From Patescibacteria group bacterium (GTDB lineage: Bacteria; Patescibacteriota; Minisyncoccia; Phycocordibacterales; JBHPGB01): a stretch of 64,000 bases of DNA. The stretch is taken from assembly GCA_042571085.1 (NCBI GenBank), contig JBHPGB010000002.1, positions 6,796 through 70,795 of the forward strand, read 5' to 3'. A model generated the notes under the pieces. That model saw only the letters and a program-made list of their open reading frames with translations. It was not told the origin of the DNA and did no database searches. Both the position numbers and the translations under genes were made by a program. Positions 3,293 through 18,803 of the stretch are shown one piece after another (position 1 is the first letter of the stretch; each line of letters opens with the position of its first letter).

Positions 3293-5902
3293 TTATAAAT
3301 GTTTTTTCAAATACTCTCCTGTAATTGATTTTTTGTTATCGGCCACCTGCTCTGGTGTACCCTTCGCAATCAAATTTCCGCCACCCTTTCCTCCCTCAGG
3401 GCCGATGTCTACTATATAATCAGCTGTTTTTACTATATCTAAATTGTGTTCAATTAAAACAACCGTGTTTCCTTTATCTACTAATTTCTGTAAAATTTCA
3501 ATCAATTTTTTCACATCTTCATAATGCAAACCAACAGTTGGCTCATCCAAAAGATAAATAGTTTTTTGCACATGAGGACGATACAATTCTGAAGAAATTT
3601 TTACTCTCTGTGCTTCTCCACCAGAAAGCGTCGTTGCTGATTGTCCCAATTCCAAATACCCAAGCCCTACATCATTCAAACTTTTTAGACGATCGTGAAT
3701 TGCTGGAATATCTTCAAAAAATTCCAGAGCTTCTTCAACTGTCATTTTAAGCACATCGTAAATATTTTTCTTTTTATACTTTACTTCCAAAGTTTCTTTT
3801 TCAAATCTTTTTCCGCCACACACATCACACTTCACATACACAGTCGGCAGAAAATGCATTTCAACAGCTATCTGCCCATTACCTTGGCATGATTCGCAGC
3901 GACCACCCTTCACGTTAAAACTAAAGCGGTTAGCTTTCCAGCCACGAAATCGCGCTTCTTCTGTTGCCGCAAACAAATCTCTAATATGTGTAAACGAACC
4001 AGTATATGTAGCTGGGTTAGATCTTGGTGTGCGTCCAATCGGTGCTTGATCTATAAGAATAGAACGAGAAACATATTCAGAACCAGTAAAGTCTGCGCAA
4101 TTATATATATCATTGCTTCTATATTTTTTATCGAAACGCGCCCGTAAGTTTTTATACAAAATCTCATGCATCAAAGAGCTTTTTCCAGAACCAGATACAC
4201 CGGTAATCACACTCATTTTCCCAAGCGGAAAATCAACATTCATGTTTTTGATGTTAAATATATTTCCTCCGCGAATTTTGATTGAACCTTTGTCTTGATC
4301 GCGGCGTTTATGCGGTACTTCTATTTCAGTATCTCCACGCAAATAATCAAGTGTTAAAGATTTTGATGGGTTTGTTTTTGCTGATAAAAGTTTTTCCAAA
4401 TCATCTGCAACAACAATCTCACCGCCATGTATACCCGCCTTTGGACCGATGTCCACAATATAATCAGAAGCAAAAATAGTATCCTCATCGTGCTCGACAA
4501 CAATGATGGTGTTGCCAAGGTCACGTAGGTTTTGAAGTGTTTTTATGAGACGGTCATTATCACGCTGGTGTAGGCCAATAGTAGGCTCATCAAGCACATA
4601 CAGTGCTCCAACCAAGCGAGAACCAAGCTGTGATGCCAAGCGAATACGCTGTGCTTCTCCACCAGAGAGTGTGTTGGCGCGTCTATCTAATGTAAGATAT
4701 TCAATTCCAACATCAAGCATGAAAAATAACCGAGCTTCAATTTCCCTCATAACAGGCTCGGATATTTCTTTATCTCTAACAGACAATTTCAAACTAGTGA
4801 AAAATTCTGCTGCTTCGCCAATAGACATTGATGTCACTTCTACTATATTTTTACCCCCGATTAAAACATTAAGCGCTTCCGATCTTAATCTCGCACCTTT
4901 ACACGTATCACATACCTCTTTACCAAAGAAATGTTTTGTACCAAGGCCATTACAAGCCTCACAAGCACCATAAGGTGAGTTGAATGAGAAAAGTCTTGGC
5001 TCAACTTCTGGATATGAAAAACCATCCTCCGGACAAGAAAACTTCGATGAAAGTATTATTTCATCATCATCTATGCGCACGCGTACAAGCCCATCAGCTT
5101 CATCAAGAGCGCGCTCTAGAGATTCCTGTAAGCGTTGTTTAGTATCTTTCGCATTCTCTTTAAAATCAAGTAAATCAATTTCATCCACCAAAACGTCGAT
5201 GTCATGCTTCTTTGTTTTGGTGAGCACAATCTGGTCACGTAAAGATTTCATTTTTCCGTCAACTCGCACATTTATATACCCTTTGCCTAGTAAATCATAA
5301 AGAAGTTGGTAATACTCACCCTTTCTCCCACGCACCACCGGTGCAAAAAGCTGTACTGAGCTAGACTTATATTCCACACCCATTACTTTTTTTGTACCAT
5401 TTTTCTTTTGTGTCTTTCCTGCACCTTTCACTTTTTTCAAAACAAAATTCAAAATCTCTTCATTAGAAAGCTTTTCAATTTCCCTACCACACTCCAAACA
5501 ATGCGGCTTTCCAATACGCGCAAAAAGTACACGCATATAATCGTATATTTCTGTAATAGTCGCCACTGTTGAACGTGGGTTGTTTGATCTACTTTTCTGA
5601 TCAATAGAAATCGCTGGAGAAAGCCCGACGATCTCATCAACATCTGGCTTCTGCATTTGACGCAAAAATTGTCGCGCGTATGCAGACAAAGATTCTACAT
5701 AACGACGCTGTCCTTCAGCAAAAATAGTATCAAAAGCAAGAGAAGATTTTCCTGATCCAGATAATCCAGTAAACACAACCATCTTATTGCGAGGCATTTC
5801 TACCGTCACATCTTTGAGATTATGTGTGCGGGCACCTTTTACTATTATTTTGCCAGACTCGAACATGTCTGATTCTTTTTTGTTATTTGTATTCTTTTTC
5901 AT
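3293..5902 (-). CDS. uvrA: excinuclease ABC subunit A (start uncertain: MKKNT at 5902 or MFESG at 5866)
   Basis: Two ABC ATPase modules ([20 protein letters not shown]), zinc-finger CxxC pairs, LSGGEAQR signatures. Confidence 0.9.
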
Positions 5903-9211: not shown

Positions 9212-9514
9212 TTAAAGCGATTTTTGCGGCCAAGAAAGTAGTCCAAAATAGTAGATGAACATTTCATAATTATCTGCTGTCCAGCTATTCATCTGTCTCC
9301 ATACCACATTGCAGATTTGCTTTTCGGCAAGTTCACGACTTTTTGTGCCACTTGCTTTTATAGGAAATCGAAGCTTGTTGGCATCGCGAAGCTTTTGATA
9401 AGTCGCAAGTGTTTTTTTGTTTTTCATAAATCGGCGATACTTTACAAGAGTATTTAGAAACCTTTCTTCCTGTTTGTTTCTTGCCAAGATTTTGATATCA
9501 AATTCTATAGTCAT
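9212..9514 (-). CDS. hypothetical protein (100 aa)
   Basis: ORF only. Flanked by terminators. Confidence 0.4.
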   Translation of the reverse strand: MTIEFDIKILARNKQEERFLNTLVKYRRFMKNKKTLATYQKLRDANKLRFPIKASGTKSRELAEKQICNVVWRQMNSWTADNYEMFIYYFGLLSWPQKSL

Positions 9515-9637
9515 AAAATTATCCTCGGTTTTTCTATATGTATTTATATCATGAAAATAAATTTTGTCTAATCTTTATATGAACTTTAAAAAGCCTTGTT
9601 TTCAGCCATATTAATCGGCTCAACCGGGTTGAGCCGA

Positions 9638-10846
<1,209 letters not shown>

Positions 10847-10901: not shown

Positions 10902-12620
10902 TTATTGAATATATTTATCTACATTAATATATTTCTTTATATTAACGACCGTCTTTCTCATTGAGGCATATATTGTTTTTGATCTAAGTTGAAAGTCTTT
11001 AGGAACTCTTTTTTGAGTGGATAATAGAAGTTCAAGCTCATCAAGATTTTTAGCGAGAATGTCTGAAATTTTTTGAATGTCTCTATTAATTACCACACGG
11101 TACGCATATTTTTTCTTCTCGTTTTCATTGTAATACCAATAGCTACCTCCACCACCTACAATAATAAGGAAAGCGAGCAGCATCAATATTTCCAGTAAAG
11201 TTAAATCAATAGGACCAGCCGACAAAATATTTTTTGCACCAACTCTCAAAGTAATTTCTTCTGTAGAGTAGCTGACAGCACCTCTATTATCACGTGATGT
11301 GAATATTAATTTATATCTACCTTTATCTAGACCATCGTCAATCGTAACTTCCCATTTCCCTGAAATATCAACTTCCGCAACACCTGAATAGACCTCTTCT
11401 TCCTTTTTTGAAATAAGATAATCAACAAATTCTCCTGCAATTCCTTTACCAGAAGCATGAAAAGTATCTTCTAATGTAATGTCATCTGTAATAAAATCAA
11501 TCGTTGGCATCTCTAAAGGAAGGATTTCAAATTCCAATTCATTATCTATATGATTACCAGCTTCATCAAATACATCAACTCGTATTGTGTGTTTTCCAGG
11601 TTTTTGAGGCTTTAATGTGATTGTGGTACTTGCCAATTCATAAGGATTTTGGCCGTCAACAGAAACCATGGAATGAGAATACCCGGAAAGACTATCGCTT
11701 CCAATCCAACTCATTTCAGGTGTTGGATTATCAGAAACCAGAGATGGTGTCTTTATATCAAAAGCAATTGGAGAAGTTACATCAATAGATATTTTATAAT
11801 GAGCTACAGCACCCCAACCTTTGTTATTCTTGAATTGAACATGTATATAATGAACACCCTCATCCAAAATTCCTAAATTCTTACCTGTAAACAATTCTTC
11901 CTCAGCTTCTTGAGGCTCTGTTTTTGGTTTATTGTTTACAGAAACAGCTATCTTAATAACATCATCAGGTACATCCCAGAACACAACTGTTTCTCCTTGA
12001 TACGTATACCATCGCTCCTGATCTGCATATAAAGGTATGCTGAGATCTGGTTTTATAGGTAATTCCTTAGAAATAACAGCTTCTCTTACTATTATTTCTG
12101 GTTGTTCAATAACTTGTGGTTTTGAAACCCCTTCCACTGGGACAGTCCCTTCGCCTATTGTAATACTAAGATTTTTAACAGTATTTAAAACATTTGTTCC
12201 TTTCCCGTCATTTGCTGTGACTATTGGCTTAGATATTCTTATTTCAGCCAATCCTGAATTAAGTGTTTTAAAATTGATTCTCACGATGCGAAGATCTTCA
12301 CCTTCCAAACCGCGCGTCGTGCCACCAATAAAACTTACTGTTCCATCCTCATTTGAAAACACTGGTTCTTCCACCCAGAAATCAAAAACTGAATTTACTC
12401 TATCAACACTCACAACCTCCAAAAGATTTGGTGGAAAAGATACTACAGACTGCGCTGCGTTTATATAATCTTCATCTGTATCAACTAAGATATCTACATA
12501 AAATTCTGTTTGTGTATTAACAGTATTTTTTTCAGATGAAAAATATAGAATTGCTGCTTCTGCTTGAGCAGCAGCAGACATAAATAAAGTAACAAAAATT
12601 ATTAAAAGTATTTTTTTCAT
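10902..12620 (-). CDS. secreted, C-terminally membrane-anchored surface protein with N-terminal cohesin-like domain
   Basis: Signal peptide MKKILLIIFVTLFMSAAAQA. Cohesin-like block (EFYVDILVDTDEDYINAAQSVVSFPPNLLEVVSVD...GTVSFIGG). C-terminal TM helix plus GGGGSYWYY. Confidence 0.55.
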   Translation of the reverse strand: MKKILLIIFVTLFMSAAAQAEAAILYFSSEKNTVNTQTEFYVDILVDTDEDYINAAQSVVSFPPNLLEVVSVDRVNSVFDFWVEEPVFSNEDGTVSFIGGTTRGLEGEDLRIVRINFKTLNSGLAEIRISKPIVTANDGKGTNVLNTVKNLSITIGEGTVPVEGVSKPQVIEQPEIIVREAVISKELPIKPDLSIPLYADQERWYTYQGETVVFWDVPDDVIKIAVSVNNKPKTEPQEAEEELFTGKNLGILDEGVHYIHVQFKNNKGWGAVAHYKISIDVTSPIAFDIKTPSLVSDNPTPEMSWIGSDSLSGYSHSMVSVDGQNPYELASTTITLKPQKPGKHTIRVDVFDEAGNHIDNELEFEILPLEMPTIDFITDDITLEDTFHASGKGIAGEFVDYLISKKEEEVYSGVAEVDISGKWEVTIDDGLDKGRYKLIFTSRDNRGAVSYSTEEITLRVGAKNILSAGPIDLTLLEILMLLAFLIIVGGGGSYWYYNENEKKKYAYRVVINRDIQKISDILAKNLDELELLLSTQKRVPKDFQLRSKTIYASMRKTVVNIKKYINVDKYIQ

Positions 12621-12622
12621 AT

Positions 12623-15346
12623 TTATATTTTAGACATTGATTTTAGAAAAATACTAAAATCGCTAATATTAATTATACCATTATTATCAAAATCAAGTGC
12701 ATTACGCAGTGGATTATTTTCGTCTCCCCATCTAAAAAGAAAGATACTCCAATCTGTAATATCAATTGCATCATCATCGTTCAAATCTGTATTTGCTGAT
12801 ACTTGTCCAGAAACTTTAAAAGTTATCGGATATGAATACGTACTTGTTATTTCGTTCCAAGTTTGTCTGACTTTTGCAAAATAAATACCCTCTTCAATTT
12901 CGGATGCGGGAATTTCAAATAAATATGAACCATCTGAACCAGCATCTGTTTCAAACTTATAAGTCCCATCCAAACTAAGCTCCACAACACTATTTGCAGC
13001 CGTATGACCAAACACAATCAAGTTTTCACTGAGATTTAAGTATTCCTTTTCAATACTTATTGTTGGTGACATGAGAATATTTTCAACAACAAGACTTCGC
13101 TCTGAATTAAAATCAACCCTGAAAGACATTATTCCGGTTTCGTGCTCATCTTTATCTACTGCTTTTAAAGTAATGAAATATTTACCTGTCAGAAGTGCCG
13201 TATAATCGATATAAAATTCTCCATTTTCTGTAATCCTATTTATGGCAATGGGGATATTTTGAAAAGAAGGATTGACATCATTTACCATTGAAACTAAAAT
13301 TTGGCTTCTAGGAAAAGCTTGCCCGGAAAATCTAATTTTTGTTGCAGCAGATCCGCCGCCGCCTTCTAGTACGGTTATAGATGGTCCTTCTAGTGTTGTT
13401 TCATTTGTAACATTGGAGAGTGCTGACTCATTAGGTGCCTCATCTGAAGTTTTCATTGCAAAATAATATGTCGTACCTGAATTCAAACTAGAAACGGTCA
13501 TTGATTCGCCAGTACCTGCAATAGACGGAGTCGGTTCTCCTGTGGCCTGTGTCGCACTACCCCAATTACCATCATTAATAGTTGCTGTGGAATATCTCAC
13601 GTCATATGTTGTCGCAGTGCCACTAGATCCATCGTCTCCTGGAGCAGTCCAAGACAAATCTATCGCGTAACTAGCTGGGTTAGAAGCAGCAAGATCGGAA
13701 ACAGCTGCTGGTGGTGTGGAATCTCCAGATGAGGTTGTGGTATCACTCGCTACATTTGAAAGCCCTGACTCATTGGGAACTTCATCAGAAGTCTTCATTG
13801 CAAAATAATATGTTGTGCCAGCGCTCAGACCTGTGACAGTCATTGATTCGGCTGTACTTGCAACAGACGGTGATGGTTCATCCGGAACTACAGGTGTAGC
13901 GGAAGCCCAGTTGCCATCATTAATAGTTGCTGTGGAATATCTAATATCATATGTAGTCGCTGTGCCACTAGATCCATCGTCTCCTGGAGCAGTCCAATCT
14001 AAATCAATAGTAGTATCTGTTGGAGATGATGCTGCTAAATCTGAAGTGGTTGATGGTGGAGTTGAATCTCCAGACACCCCTGTTGCAGCACTCGTAACAT
14101 TAGAAAGTCCGGATTCATTTGGTACTTCATCTGAGGTCTTCATTGCAAAGTAGTACGTAGTATCTGCACTTAGTCCAGTAACTGTCATTGATTCAGCAGT
14201 ACTAGCAACGGATGGTGATGGCTCATCTGGAACAACAGGAGTTGCTGAGGCCCAGTTGCCGTCGTTGATAGTTGCGGTTGAGTATCTAATATCATAAGTA
14301 GTGGCAGTACCTGTACTTCCATCATCTCCAGGGGCTGTCCAATCAAGATCTATAGTAGAAGTAGTCGGGCCAGAAGCTGTAAGATCAGAAGTGGTTGCCG
14401 GTGGAGTTGAATCACCAGCAGGACTTGTTGCAGCACTCGTCACATTAGAAAGCGCAGACTCGTTTGGAACCTCATCTGATGTTTTCATTGCAAAATAGTA
14501 TGTTGTGCCAGCACTCAGACCTGTGACAGTCATTGATTCGGCTGTACTTGCAACAGACGGTGATGGTTCATCCGGAACTACAGGAGTTGCTGAGGCCCAG
14601 TTGCCGTCGTTGATAGTTGCGGTTGAGTATCTAATATCATAAGTAGTGGCAGTACCTGTACTTCCATCATCTCCAGGGGCTGTCCAGTCTAGATCTATAG
14701 TCGTGCTTGTTGGACCAGAAGCAGTCAGATCAGAGGTTGTTGCTGGTGGAGTCGAGTCTGCCGGGGTGTAGGTGATAACTGTTTTTAATTGAGAAATCCT
14801 CACATCCTTACCTGCGCTTGTGTCAATAATACCAATCTCTATATCACTCCCACTTGCTTTAGTATGACTCACTGAAAAAGACTGCGTTGCTTCTGCATAA
14901 CTATTCCCTGTTGTAAGATCTGCTCCAGAACTTGTACAGGCACCATCAAAACAATAACGAGTCTGAAATGTACCACCATTTGAACCCTCTTTAAAATAAC
15001 AAGCAGTAACATCTATATTAGTAATGGATGCACCATCTGGAATACCTGATTCATCAATATCAAACGTTTGACTCACGTCAACACCGTTACTATATATGTA
15101 TGAAATATCTCCATCCGAATTAGCACATTCAGCGCCAGTGGTTTCATCAACTTCCAAATAACAATCAGCGGCATTACATGCTGTAGCACCGGTATTTAAC
15201 CAACTTGCACTGTCTTCTCCACCATCAGCGGACGGCATCAAAGAAGAGGTAACGTCTGCAGACACACTAACAACCATTATTGCGATCCAAGCAATAATAA
15301 AAGCGCCTAAAAAAATGGAGAATTTTTTGATTTCAAATTTAATCAT
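12623..15346 (-). CDS. large surface protein with 4 tandem fibronectin type III-like repeats and a C-terminal type-I dockerin module
   Basis: N-terminal signal/TM. Four roughly 115-aa near-identical repeats (TPPATTSDL...TTYYFAMKTSDEVPNES). C-terminal duplicated Ca-binding dockerin repeats DLNDDDAIDITDWSIFL and DFDNNGIINISDFSIFL. Confidence 0.7.
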   Translation of the reverse strand: MIKFEIKKFSIFLGAFIIAWIAIMVVSVSADVTSSLMPSADGGEDSASWLNTGATACNAADCYLEVDETTGAECANSDGDISYIYSNGVDVSQTFDIDESGIPDGASITNIDVTACYFKEGSNGGTFQTRYCFDGACTSSGADLTTGNSYAEATQSFSVSHTKASGSDIEIGIIDTSAGKDVRISQLKTVITYTPADSTPPATTSDLTASGPTSTTIDLDWTAPGDDGSTGTATTYDIRYSTATINDGNWASATPVVPDEPSPSVASTAESMTVTGLSAGTTYYFAMKTSDEVPNESALSNVTSAATSPAGDSTPPATTSDLTASGPTTSTIDLDWTAPGDDGSTGTATTYDIRYSTATINDGNWASATPVVPDEPSPSVASTAESMTVTGLSADTTYYFAMKTSDEVPNESGLSNVTSAATGVSGDSTPPSTTSDLAASSPTDTTIDLDWTAPGDDGSSGTATTYDIRYSTATINDGNWASATPVVPDEPSPSVASTAESMTVTGLSAGTTYYFAMKTSDEVPNESGLSNVASDTTTSSGDSTPPAAVSDLAASNPASYAIDLSWTAPGDDGSSGTATTYDVRYSTATINDGNWGSATQATGEPTPSIAGTGESMTVSSLNSGTTYYFAMKTSDEAPNESALSNVTNETTLEGPSITVLEGGGGSAATKIRFSGQAFPRSQILVSMVNDVNPSFQNIPIAINRITENGEFYIDYTALLTGKYFITLKAVDKDEHETGIMSFRVDFNSERSLVVENILMSPTISIEKEYLNLSENLIVFGHTAANSVVELSLDGTYKFETDAGSDGSYLFEIPASEIEEGIYFAKVRQTWNEITSTYSYPITFKVSGQVSANTDLNDDDAIDITDWSIFLFRWGDENNPLRNALDFDNNGIINISDFSIFLKSMSKI
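13390..14765. repeat. four tandem direct repeats of about 345 bp (FN3-repeat coding units)
   Basis: Repeat anchors TTCATTGCAAA(A/G)TA at about 13452, 13794, 14140 and 14485 (spacing 341-346 bp). Units 1-3 are nearly identical at nucleotide level. Confidence 0.8.
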
Positions 15347-15391: not shown

Positions 15392-15829
15392 TTATTTTAA
15401 AAAACTCTTTACCTTATCAATAATTTCAGCAACAGAATGTTTGGACTTAACAATATAATCATCAGCCCCCAAACTTAATCCTTTTTTAACATCATCATCA
15501 CTCCCAAGAGCAGTTATAATGATAACTGGAATATTTTTTGTATGGGAATCTTTTTTAATTTTTGTTAATATGTCAAAGCCGTGAACTTCAGGAAGCATAA
15601 GGTCCAATAAAATCAACTCCGGAAGCTCAGTCCTAACCATTCTTAATGCATCACCGCCAGAAAATACAGGCTTAACTGTAAACCCGGATTTTTCTAATTC
15701 ACCACTTATAACCTGAGACAAGGTTTTGTCATCTTCTATAAATAGAATTTTTTTACCTGATGTAATCGGCTCATTTATTTCGTCTATTTTATTTATTTCA
15801 TTTGTTTCGTTTACTTCTTCCATATTCAT
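15392..15829 (-). CDS. single-domain response regulator (REC only) with N-terminal EINE repeats
   Basis: CheY-like fold residues: acidic pocket EDD, phospho-acceptor D in ILLDLMLP, conserved K in YIVKS. No output domain. Confidence 0.75.
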   Translation of the reverse strand: MNMEEVNETNEINKIDEINEPITSGKKILFIEDDKTLSQVISGELEKSGFTVKPVFSGGDALRMVRTELPELILLDLMLPEVHGFDILTKIKKDSHTKNIPVIIITALGSDDDVKKGLSLGADDYIVKSKHSVAEIIDKVKSFLK

Positions 15830-15965: not shown

Positions 15966-16352
15966 TTATCTTTTGTGTATGTTATCAAAAAATTCTGTAA
16001 CCTTTTCTACAATTTCTGCTACTGCGTGTTGCGCCTTCACAATGTAATCATCCGCACCTAATTGAATTCCTTTTTTAATATCCTCATCACTACCGAGCAT
16101 GGTAATAATAATTACTGGAATCTCTTTTGTTTCGGGAGATTGTTTCAATTGCTGCAACACATCAAAACCATGTTTTTTGGGAAGTACTAGATCAAGTAGT
16201 ATTAAATCTGGTTTTTCTGACTTTATTATATCCCAAGCCTCTTCACCGTTGTATGCATTTGCTACCTCAAAACCAGCATCAGATAATTCCTCATAAACAA
16301 CTTTTGATAAAATTTTGTCGTCTTCAACCAAGACTATATTTCCTTTTTTCAT
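15966..16352 (-). CDS. single-domain response regulator (REC only)
   Basis: VLVEDD, LILLDLVLP, YIVKA motifs. 128 aa. Confidence 0.75.
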   Translation of the reverse strand: MKKGNIVLVEDDKILSKVVYEELSDAGFEVANAYNGEEAWDIIKSEKPDLILLDLVLPKKHGFDVLQQLKQSPETKEIPVIIITMLGSDEDIKKGIQLGADDYIVKAQHAVAEIVEKVTEFFDNIHKR

Positions 16353-16421: not shown

Positions 16422-18803
16422 TTATGCAAGTTTTTTTCCACCTTTTTTAGATACTGTAGATACTGATTTTATGGGCAATTCCACAAAGAATGTGGTCCCC
16501 TTATCTTCAACAGATTCAAACCATATTTTTCCACCAAGAAGATCGACGGCTTTTTTGGCTATGTACAAACCAAGACCAGTTCCTGATGTGTTTGTAAGTT
16601 TTGCGTTGTCACCCCTTGTAAATTTATCGAAAATGGTTTTCTGCGCGCTTATTGGAATACCTATACCAGTATCCTTAACAGTAAAAGTGAATGTTTTGTT
16701 ATCTTTTTTCTTTAGGACAATTTCTATCTTACCACCTTCGGGTGTATATTCAAGCGCATTTGAAATCAAAGATTGTATTATATTTCGCAAAGCACCCTTA
16801 TCTGTAAGTATTTCCAATGAATCTGGATGCTCGTCAAAAGTTATAGTTAAGCTTTTCTTTGTTGTCATTGGTACTATTTCATTCAAATATCTTTTCAAAA
16901 GATCAACAAGTTCTATCGGTTGGACTTGTACCTCTACAGCACCACCCTCAATACGAGATACATTAAGCAATATATCAACAAGTTCGGAAAGCTCTTCGGT
17001 GCTTGAGTGAATATCTTCAAGATATTCTTTTCCTTTTTTTGAAACCTTTTCTTTTTTCAAGAAATGTTCTATTACCCACCTGATACCGGTGATTGGTGTT
17101 CTCAACTGATGAGATGCTGTCGAAATGAAGTCCGTTTCCATTTTGTCAATTTCCCTTTCTCTAGTTACATCTCGAAAAACAACTACACAACCAAGAATTT
17201 TTCCATCCAGATCTTTTATCGGAGCAGCGCTATCATCAACAGGTATTTCCACTCCATCTTTATTGATTATTAAAGCGTCCTTTTCTATCTTTGTCTTTTC
17301 CCCCATTTGCATTGCTTTTGCAATAAAATCCTCAACTGGGGTTTTTTCAACCTCTGATATAAATTTAAGATACTTATCGTAATGCCTACCAGTAACTTCA
17401 CTAGCTGTAAAGCCAGTTAATTCTTCAGCAACGGCATTAAACAGCATAATCTTTCCATCTCCATCACAAGCCATAAGCGCATCACCAATGGAAGCCAAGA
17501 TTGCCTCATCTTTACTTTTTTCTTCTGCCAATTCCTGATTCTTTATATTCACATCTTCAGCGATATTTAACATTGCCTCTTTGACCCCTTCCAGATCTGT
17601 TATTTTTGCGGCCAACTCTTCTGTTCTCTTTTCAACCTTTTGCTCCAAACCAGCAGCGTATTCCTGTACCTTATCTTGAGATTGTCTCAGATCAGCTGAC
17701 ATTTTATCAAACGCCTTACCTAATTGAGAGACGTCATCACCCTCTTTATCATCGGCATTAGTGATTGATCCTACATCTTCTTGAAGCTCTTTAATAGGGC
17801 GGGCGATTATTTTCGCAAATAAAATCGCTGCAACAATAATAAAGAAGGCAAATAATGCGATCATAAATCCAAGCAGGAATCTCATACTAGCAATTGGAGA
17901 AAAAGCATCTTCCGTCTTAATTTCGGCCAACAACTTCCATCCTTCCTCTAGACACATAGATGCACCAATCACTTCTTCTGCTTTATGATTTGTGTAGATA
18001 TCAATAACCTCTACAGCATGAGAACATTGTTGTACCGGGTATGTGTTGATCACAAAATCATTTTCATCTTCTGAAATAAATGGATTAATAAATGCTATAT
18101 TGTCTTCGTTTACTATATATATTTTTAAAATTCCTGATAATTCTGAAAAGGTTTCTTCGAATATACCACTTCTGCTAAAATTAAATTGATTTGAAAAAAC
18201 ATTTCGAATATCATCAATATCAAATACATTTGCAATAACACCAATAATTTCTCTAGTGTTATCATCTTCAATAGGGGCAGTAACAACAAAAATATCTTTA
18301 ATTCCAAAATGTACATGCCTTTTGAGTTCTGTTGCAAATGAAATAGATTCCTTGCCATTAATAAAATAGGACTCATTGGATTCATTTTTACCAATTTCAC
18401 TATTGTCCGTTGAAGAAATAATTACACCATTCAAATCCATAATAAAAATGCCTTTGATGTTTTCATCCAATGGTTTTTTATTTTTTATTAAATGGTTGTT
18501 GAGATTTATTATTGAATTTTCTGTGTCATCACCAGATAAAATTTGTGTAAGACTATTTTTAATGAATTCGTCTAATGCAAAATCAGCTGTCCTGCCTTTG
18601 GTCGATTCTAAGTACATTTCAAGCTGGTGCTCTTGTGCCTCAGCCAAAAGCACGATCTTGTTGAAGATTTCAGTTTTTAAATTATCTCTAGTTTCTCGTA
18701 TACTTAAAACACCAAAAATTATTAGTGGTAATAATCCAACTAATAAAAAAGTAACCAGTAATTTTATATTAAAACTCCTTATGTGTGGTTTTTTTATTTT
18801 CAT
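16422..18803 (-). CDS. membrane sensor histidine kinase (TM / extracellular sensor / HAMP / PAS / HisKA / HATPase_c)
   Basis: Two TM helices. H-box ASHQLRTPITGIRW. PAS-like segment. G-box GTGLGLYIAKK. Confidence 0.8.
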   Translation of the reverse strand: MKIKKPHIRSFNIKLLVTFLLVGLLPLIIFGVLSIRETRDNLKTEIFNKIVLLAEAQEHQLEMYLESTKGRTADFALDEFIKNSLTQILSGDDTENSIINLNNHLIKNKKPLDENIKGIFIMDLNGVIISSTDNSEIGKNESNESYFINGKESISFATELKRHVHFGIKDIFVVTAPIEDDNTREIIGVIANVFDIDDIRNVFSNQFNFSRSGIFEETFSELSGILKIYIVNEDNIAFINPFISEDENDFVINTYPVQQCSHAVEVIDIYTNHKAEEVIGASMCLEEGWKLLAEIKTEDAFSPIASMRFLLGFMIALFAFFIIVAAILFAKIIARPIKELQEDVGSITNADDKEGDDVSQLGKAFDKMSADLRQSQDKVQEYAAGLEQKVEKRTEELAAKITDLEGVKEAMLNIAEDVNIKNQELAEEKSKDEAILASIGDALMACDGDGKIMLFNAVAEELTGFTASEVTGRHYDKYLKFISEVEKTPVEDFIAKAMQMGEKTKIEKDALIINKDGVEIPVDDSAAPIKDLDGKILGCVVVFRDVTREREIDKMETDFISTASHQLRTPITGIRWVIEHFLKKEKVSKKGKEYLEDIHSSTEELSELVDILLNVSRIEGGAVEVQVQPIELVDLLKRYLNEIVPMTTKKSLTITFDEHPDSLEILTDKGALRNIIQSLISNALEYTPEGGKIEIVLKKKDNKTFTFTVKDTGIGIPISAQKTIFDKFTRGDNAKLTNTSGTGLGLYIAKKAVDLLGGKIWFESVEDKGTTFFVELPIKSVSTVSKKGGKKLA

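Follow-up and report, generated by a model that had tools for sequence, protein, structure and literature searches.

A membrane-anchored cohesin protein and its dockerin-bearing neighbour as a probable surface-tethering pair in Patescibacteria

Two adjacent genes of a Patescibacteria group bacterium encode the two halves of a cohesin–dockerin pair. They lie on the minus strand, 2 nucleotides (nt) apart, in a 64-kb stretch of contig JBHPGB010000002.1 (hereafter the window, meaning the whole stretch analysed), and both open reading frames (ORFs) were verified as given in the ORF list of the window. The upstream gene encodes a 907-amino-acid (aa) protein, here called the carrier, which contains fibronectin type III (FN3) repeats and ends in a dockerin; the downstream gene encodes a 572-aa protein, here called the anchor, which bears a cohesin near its N-terminus and a membrane helix towards its C-terminus. 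An initial annotation, made from the DNA letters, had proposed that an FN3-repeat dockerin protein adjoins a membrane-anchored cohesin protein. This arrangement is confirmed, and the two modules prove to be almost obligately co-encoded, in hundreds of genomes, while the cargo joined to the dockerin varies. The features of the pair, in window coordinates, are these:

12623..15346, minus strand: carrier gene, 907 aa; ORF for a predicted secreted FN3-repeat protein with a C-terminal dockerin
15257..15346, minus strand: carrier signal peptide, residues 1-30, MIKFEIKKFSIFLGAFIIAWIAIMVVSVSA; basic n-region, hydrophobic core and V-S-A cleavage-type motif, read by eye
14759..15256, minus strand: carrier N-terminal cargo domain, residues 31-196, with four conserved Cys; from the family alignment
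13385..14758, minus strand: four tandem FN3 domains, residues 197-654; Pfam fn3 in four stretches, E 9.5e-32
12806..13330, minus strand: cassette of two immunoglobulin-like (Ig-like) domains just before the dockerin, residues ~673-847; weak Big_6 and Y_Y_Y matches
12626..12787, minus strand: dockerin module, residues 854-907; calcium (Ca)-loop 1 at 12752-12787, helix 1 at 12728-12751, Ca-loop 2 at 12659-12694, helix 2 at 12635-12658
10902..12620, minus strand: anchor gene, 572 aa; ORF for a predicted type-I membrane protein with an N-terminal cohesin
12561..12620, minus strand: anchor signal peptide, residues 1-20, with a cleavage-type A-Q-A; read by eye, with a helix at 2-15 in the AlphaFold2 (AF2) model
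12147..12554, minus strand: cohesin domain, residues 23-158; family-level Pfam evidence and AF2/Foldseek, with an invariant DGKGTNVL loop at 12186-12212
11205..12107, minus strand: stalk of about four Ig-like beta domains, residues 172-472; Big_13, AF2 model and Foldseek
11130..11204, minus strand: single transmembrane (TM) helix with GGGG, residues 473-497; hydrophobic stretch LTLLEILMLLAFLIIVGGGGSYWYY, read by eye
10905..11129, minus strand: conserved, predicted cytoplasmic helical tail, residues 498-572; AF2 model, Lys/Arg-rich

The carrier terminates in TDLNDDDAIDITDWSIFLFRWGDENNPLRNALDFDNNGIINISDFSIFLKSMSKI, a module that, judged from its residues and those of its orthologues, is a genuine though divergent dockerin. 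Residues 854-907 read DLNDDDAIDITD-WSIFLFRW ... DFDNNGIINISD-FSIFLKSM, and the duplicated segments (carrier residues 854-873 and 885-904) each comprise a 12-residue Ca-loop followed by a helix, the loops being D854-L-N-D-D-D-A-I-D-I-T-D865 and D885-F-D-N-N-G-I-I-N-I-S-D896. Seven of ten orthologous modules score above the Pfam Dockerin_1 (PF00404) gathering cutoff, at 27.5-38.9 bits, and have Dockerin_1 as their best or near-best family. A profile built from seven modules matches solved dockerins in the PDB with both Ca-loops in register (E 2.8e-5 to 8e-3), among them the cellulosomal 2yik, 2y3n_B, 4fl4_A, 1daq and 2mte and the non-cellulosomal Clostridium perfringens dockerin 2jnk. Across 129 non-redundant orthologues, Asp occupies positions 1 and 12 of the two loops in 129/129, 129/129, 129/129 and 128/129 sequences; position 3 is N, D or S, position 5 is D or N (or S), position 9 is mostly D or N, and D-(W/F)-S-I-F-L follows both loops. 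The textbook duplicated Ca-binding dockerin that the initial annotation saw at the end of the 907-aa protein thus has both of its repeats and family-level Pfam support, and the Ca-coordinating Asp/Asn positions singled out there as a check are present, with the Asp at loop positions 1 and 12 essentially invariant.

The partner domain in the anchor was identified by its predicted structure, which we regard as decisive for its being a genuine cohesin. A domain-only AF2 model (predicted local distance difference test, pLDDT, 91.3; predicted template-modelling score, pTM, 0.82) is all-beta, and its fold agrees with the nine-stranded, flattened jelly-roll sandwich of solved cohesins, on which it is superimposable. 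When this model was compared with the PDB by Foldseek, the top 50 matches were all cohesins (template-modelling scores 0.62-0.76, E 5e-8 to 1e-6), and they covered types I, II and III, both cellulosomal and non-cellulosomal (2xdh, 2jh2, 2vo8). The full-length model of the 572-aa anchor (mean pLDDT 88) retrieved mostly generic multi-Ig adhesins and S-layer proteins, with the first cohesin at rank 39. At the sequence level, 8 of 32 orthologous domains match Pfam Cohesin (PF00963) at E<0.01 (best 1.9e-8), and a family profile weakly matches Ruminococcus scaffoldin cohesins in the PDB (E 0.005-0.007); a single-sequence phmmer search of the anchor against the PDB returned noise only (a beta-lactamase at E 0.4). 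Some relatives of the anchor already carry PF00963 or the NCBI name 'cohesin domain-containing protein', and some records carry PF00404.

Among 1.84 billion representatives, a wider and exhaustive HMMER search found 434 clusters (50% identity) matching at E<=1e-30, a number that rises to 4,890 when the limit is set at E<=1e-10. The top match, a protein of 2,276 aa, has nine cohesins of this subtype that are significant by Pfam (275 bits for the Cohesin family) and a dockerin of its own; because this best match is a nine-cohesin scaffoldin, the cohesin subtype of the anchor is continuous with classical scaffoldin cohesins. The gene for the 2,276-aa protein (L167, 4650-11480) also encodes Big_7 and FN3 spacers, places its dockerin at the C-terminus, and is flanked by three more cohesin proteins, a glycoside hydrolase of family GH44 whose C-terminus weakly resembles a dockerin, and two cupredoxins, which together resemble a cellulosome cluster.

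Beyond its cohesin, the anchor (identical to the NCBI hypothetical protein ACFLY0_02335 of a Patescibacteria group bacterium, P0001) reads as a type-I membrane protein with a signal peptide (MKKILLIIFVTLFMSAAAQA), one TM helix and a basic cytoplasmic tail. A short disordered linker leads from the cohesin to the stalk, which matches Pfam Big_13 (E 9e-12) and, weakly, PKD, and is all-beta in the AF2 model. The TM stretch is followed by NENEKKKYAYR, consistent with the positive-inside rule, and AF2 predicts helices at 475-535 (continuous and including the TM segment) and 541-565. The signal peptide, C-terminal membrane anchor and Gly-rich segment described for the downstream protein in the initial annotation are all present, the GGGG lying inside the TM helix. 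Within the tail, R513, D514, K517 and Y564 are near-invariant among 116 relatives, a degree of conservation that is unexpected for a passive anchor.

The carrier, in our reading of its sequence, has no hydrophobic segment beyond the signal peptide and no sortase or sorting motif. Its N-terminal domain gave no Pfam match, no PDB profile match and one homologue only in a word-index search. A domain of this kind (~165 aa) was found in 13 of 82 carriers, sometimes in multiple copies, with invariant C30/C35/C105/C110 (alignment numbering) and the motifs ADGG, EVDE, SDGDxSYI and QTF, and it represents an unannotated family of cargo domains. In the DNA, the FN3 domains correspond to a tandem repeat with a 345-nt unit (13407-14759; 3.9 copies, 78% matches), whose copy number may differ between strains. 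Over its C-terminal part the carrier is 100% identical to an NCBI record (P0121) named 'fibronectin type III domain-containing protein, partial'; that record lies on a 5.7-kb contig and is partial probably because the assembly broke within the FN3 repeat. By analogy with the X-modules of type II/III XDoc dyads, the Ig-like domains beside the dockerin may play a stabilising role.

Carriers of this type range from about 110 to 2,600 aa across loci, and their cargo comprises FN3, TIG, InlB-B-repeat-like, Big_6, CBM96, Ig-like or unannotated beta domains. By Pfam, no catalytic domain occurs in the window carrier or in any sampled carrier. Common to all carriers examined, whatever their cargo, is a C-terminal cassette of ~250 aa consisting of two Ig-like domains and the dockerin. 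Measured by majority-residue frequency, the cohesin (0.59) and the dockerin (0.61-0.65) are the most conserved parts of their proteins, the frequency elsewhere being 0.27-0.53.

To what extent the two modules travel together was read from both sides of the pair. The anchor has 502 relatives among 185,579 species-representative genomes, and 115 relatives could be aligned with the window protein over its full length, at 32-78% identity. Starting from the anchor (86 loci), a dockerin was found at the C-terminus of the same-strand gene immediately upstream in 83 of 86 assessable cohesin genes, the median distance from dockerin end to cohesin start being 88 nt, essentially the length of the signal peptide of the anchor. 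Starting from the dockerin in metagenomes, the cohesin gene came directly next in 72 of 76 assessable cases. In the four exceptions, the gene directly after the carrier encodes only a receiver (REC) domain; in three of these cases the cohesin gene comes right after the REC gene, and in the fourth the contig ends there. These REC-only genes lie between carrier and anchor at 3909-4343 (L118), 4226-4624 (L137) and 4282-4677 (L138), and after the carrier at 754-1212 (L091). Their insertion between the two genes in some lineages suggests that the receiver is integral to the module and not a mere neighbour.

The pairing also holds in a divergent subfamily of anchors with two cohesins, where a dockerin carrier again lies directly upstream and the dockerin has changed along with the cohesins, each repeat reading DFSILLYxW. 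At one locus of this subfamily, an ORF fragment on the minus strand at the contig end (L168, 6532-6825) encodes the end of a cohesin and then a dockerin in one polypeptide; an adaptor-type protein of this kind could chain these modules. In a Harrisonbacteria metagenome-assembled genome (MAG), two cohesin-anchor genes stand in tandem (L047, 7707-8150 and 9446-9883), and a dockerin carrier precedes the first only.

We define here a patescibacterial cohesin-anchor family of ~575 aa, and the window protein shows its full architecture and gene order. Many Parcubacteria lineages carry it and dominate the matches, and the presence of the pair in a Peregrinibacteria MAG (a 154,843-bp contig of Candidatus Peribacteria, L052/L114) indicates that its range in the candidate phyla radiation (CPR) is wider than one class. 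Several records, including L041/L004 (CAYFPM010000001.1), L079, L080 and many 'uncultured Candidatus Saccharibacteria' TPA entries, carry a Parcubacteria-type cluster under Gammaproteobacteria or Saccharibacteria labels. They include contigs of several hundred kb (one of 621 kb), and such third-party taxon labels look unreliable.

From these observations we infer that the two genes encode a non-cellulosomal cohesin–dockerin pair that tethers a protein to the cell surface, and we consider this reading probable. What the data establish is the identity of the two domains, the Ca-ligand residues, a topology read from the sequence and the conserved coupling of the genes; binding, its Ca dependence, display at the surface and control by the two-component genes are inferred from them. 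The signal peptide of the anchor would direct its export and the single C-terminal helix would hold it in the cytoplasmic membrane, with one cohesin presented at the tip of about four Ig-like domains. CPR envelopes are Gram-positive-like, and a four-Ig stalk would reach clear of the wall. The carrier would be secreted by a signal peptide of its own and, since it has no retention signal, is proposed to be captured through Ca-dependent binding of its dockerin to the cohesin. The cassette of two Ig-like domains and a Ca-loaded dockerin would then plug into the cohesin, leaving the FN3 repeats and the N-terminal Cys domain displayed at the surface. Across the lineage, the modules of plug and socket stay constant and the cargo is swapped. 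Because the cargo is non-enzymatic and adhesin-like, the pair likely serves adhesion or surface architecture and not catalysis; adhesion to host, substrate or sister cells, or a role in surface architecture, is the most plausible function, and attachment to a host or substrate specifically is a plausible guess.

Several results weigh against this interpretation or lend it no support. The window cohesin matches PF00963 over profile positions 11-138 of 139 (128 positions) at 16.8 bits in context and 21.4 bits when isolated (E 3.1e-4), below the gathering cutoff of 24.1 bits; the window dockerin matches Dockerin_1 over positions 2-51 of 57 at 13.6 bits in context and 17.2 bits when isolated, below the cutoff of 22.9 bits. 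The signal peptides and topology of both proteins were read by eye, with no predictor. One locus (L066) has a cohesin gene with no dockerin within 8 kb, and the two-cohesin anchors have only one adjacent carrier in each of L168-L170, so that cohesin number does not track carrier number locally. Covariation, computed as mutual information with average product correction (MI-APC) over 129 non-redundant natural pairs, reached a maximum MIp of 0.230 between cohesin and dockerin (99.9th percentile 0.192), no stronger than the stalk control, with a maximum of 0.243 (99.9th percentile 0.157), a result that tips the balance in neither direction. K140 of the invariant DGKGTN loop recurs among the top covarying pairs. 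For the cohesin-like N-terminal domain noted in the initial annotation, the outcome is divided: the window domain by itself falls short of the Pfam threshold, while its relatives score significantly and its fold matches cohesins only.

Some of these same results also fit a rival reading, in which the homology of both modules to cohesin and dockerin is real and yet they fail to bind one another. The EF-hand pair of the carrier might then be a Ca-dependent stability or folding module, or might bind the cell wall or a host; the cohesin would bind some other ligand, and the genes would be neighbours as surface components made together. The covariation that does no better than the stalk control fits this explanation, as do the mismatch between cohesins and adjacent carriers in the two-cohesin loci and the scores of the dockerin module on EF-hand models and a sarcoplasmic Ca-binding protein. 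Peer et al. are also said to have described, in 2009, many non-cellulosomal cohesin and dockerin modules for which no partner had been demonstrated. However, the near-obligate co-occurrence, seen in both sampling directions and across divergent genomes and cargoes, is hard to explain without direct functional coupling. Moreover, the cohesin and the dockerin are the segments under strongest conservation in both proteins, the type of dockerin changes together with the cohesin subfamily, and the carrier would otherwise have no means of retention at the cell. We therefore judge it unlikely that the modules do not bind, and favour the tethering pair.

A place in a true cellulosome, in which dockerin-bearing enzymes that degrade polysaccharides gather on a scaffoldin with several cohesins, usually with a carbohydrate-binding module, is very improbable. 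Cohesin and dockerin are its hallmark modules, and a related cohesin subtype does occur, in another organism, in the nine-cohesin scaffoldin beside GH44. In contrast, the anchor has a single cohesin, enzymes are missing from the window carrier and from the sampled carriers, and the dockerin and cohesin of the pair are the only ones of their type in the 64-kb window, where no glycoside hydrolase and no further dockerin occur. With one cohesin, no enzymes and no other dockerins, a true cellulosome is effectively excluded at this locus. The term 'cellulosome-style', used in the initial annotation, applies to the plug and socket and to nothing beyond them. A chance or compositional resemblance, in which low-complexity D/N-rich repeats happen to adjoin a generic beta-sandwich, has a negligible probability: the Pfam scores of the window proteins below their gathering thresholds would fit it, but it is excluded by the family-level Pfam significance, the cohesin-only fold matches, the invariant ligand positions and the synteny conserved in more than 150 loci.

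Upstream of the carrier, on the same strand, lie genes of a two-component system, which the initial annotation did not mention and which our analysis adds:

15392..15829, minus strand: REC-only response regulator, 145 aa, 45 nt upstream of the carrier; Pfam Response_reg only
15966..16352, minus strand: second REC-only response regulator, 128 aa; Pfam Response_reg only
16422..18803, minus strand: sensor histidine kinase, 793 aa, dCache-PAS-HisKA-HATPase; Pfam

Going upstream from the carrier through the two REC genes to the kinase, the intergenic gaps are 45, 136 and 69 nt. A REC ORF lies directly upstream of the carrier at 45 of 63 assessable loci (median gap 61 nt), and similar sensor kinases lie upstream in L001, L003, L004, L005 and L006. 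The linkage of the pair to signalling genes is real but looser than that between cohesin and dockerin. The pair is probably co-transcribed, as a rule, with the dCache kinase and the REC-only proteins, which probably control it. A more integrated sense-and-attach module can be imagined, in which REC proteins phosphorylated by the kinase act post-translationally on the tail of the anchor, or the tail reports the load on the tether to them, giving these minimal cells an integrin-like two-way link from an exchangeable adhesin at the surface to signalling inside; we think this quite improbable. Given the near-invariant tail residues and the REC linkage, a direct interaction between REC and tail is conceivable, as a speculation of low probability.

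Downstream, the neighbour of the pair is tgt, and the rest of the window is housekeeping (uvrABC, clpB, gyrA, topA, relA/spoT, infB, serS and seven tRNAs). No Rfam family besides tRNA was found in the window, and no Rfam or tRNA feature lies inside or adjoining the pair. Scans of the region for promoters gave promoter-like sites no more common than in shuffled sequences; terminator-like sites were modestly above shuffles, and none was informative on operon structure. A 15-bp perfect hairpin with T-runs on both sides (9610-9642), between tgt and a small ORF at 9212-9514, is likely a bidirectional terminator at the downstream end of a transcription unit to which the pair may belong. Plus-strand ORFs overlapping the two genes (for example 12037-12468 and 13815-14153) have no homology evidence and lie inside well-supported genes, and were rejected as antisense artefacts.

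A large part of bacterial diversity belongs to the Patescibacteria (the CPR). Many of these bacteria are believed to grow attached to other cells, and the ways in which most of them construct and vary their own surface are poorly understood. The pair suggests a simple and widely conserved rule, in which one membrane-anchored cohesin socket accompanies one operon-encoded dockerin plug and the displayed part is freely exchanged. If the binding is true, this would be a major non-cellulosomal use of cohesin and dockerin with a new mode of anchoring, by a TM helix with a cytoplasmic tail. It would also provide a genomic handle on candidate attachment proteins in uncultured episymbionts and a ready-made orthogonal cohesin–dockerin pair for protein engineering, and the REC-only linkage is a testable entry into surface control in these organisms. 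In the literature on cohesin and dockerin in Patescibacteria, CPR or Parcubacteria we found no description of the pair; the nearest remark concerns a cultivated saccharibacterium in which a protein with a dockerin domain is essential (PMC10633639). We see in the pair no new principle; it is a widespread, undescribed surface-display module in a poorly understood lineage.

Cohesin–dockerin systems whose biology is general knowledge offer several points of comparison. The closest functional analogue is ScaE/CttA of Ruminococcus flavefaciens (type III), in which a single cell-anchored cohesin holds a non-enzymatic protein through a C-terminal dockerin that follows Ig-like/X modules. The ScaE cohesin (2zf9) is among the Foldseek matches of the anchor cohesin, and CttA, the protein that ScaE holds, is an XDoc-bearing adhesion protein. 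Sortase links ScaE to peptidoglycan, and ScaE is at the same time the anchor of a large cellulosome with enzymes, whereas the pair described here would rely on a TM helix with a conserved cytoplasmic tail, has its partner in the same operon and involves no enzymes.

The single-cohesin surface anchors OlpA, OlpC and SdbA of Clostridium (Acetivibrio) thermocellum similarly bind dockerin proteins, through a duplicated Ca-binding F-hand. The repeat symmetry seen here (D-W/F-S-I-F-L in both repeats) resembles dual-binding-mode type I dockerins, which the nearly symmetrical helices of the window dockerin may be taken to recall. The type I/II complexes 4dh2 and 3ul4 are among the fold matches, at 11-19% identity to the anchor cohesin. 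In contrast to our pair, these anchors come from cellulolytic Firmicutes and are attached by SLH domains; the dockerins that they bind sit on enzymes or scaffoldins whose genes are dispersed over the genome. The glycoside-hydrolase toxin complexes of C. perfringens (2jh2, 2vo8, 2w1n, 2ozn/2jnk) and the cohesin of Archaeoglobus fulgidus (2xdh) show that cohesin and dockerin are used outside cellulose degradation; cohesins from both organisms occur in our fold matches, and the dockerin 2jnk in our profile matches. The C. perfringens modules differ in that they join secreted enzymes to each other, with no membrane anchor, no conserved one-to-one operon and no two-component genes.

Compared at the level of domains, the overall architecture of the anchor is also that of the animal protein TMEM132, which combines a cohesin homologue, tandem bacterial-Ig-like domains, a single TM helix and a cytoplasmic tail, and has been proposed to be an outside-inside adhesion molecule (PMC6030884). 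TMEM132 differs in being eukaryotic and in having no known dockerin partner. Set beside all of these systems, the pair is distinguished by five features: anchoring by a TM helix with a conserved cytoplasmic tail, a dedicated partner whose gene shares the operon, exchangeable cargo without enzymes, a frequent association with two-component genes, and occurrence in Patescibacteria.

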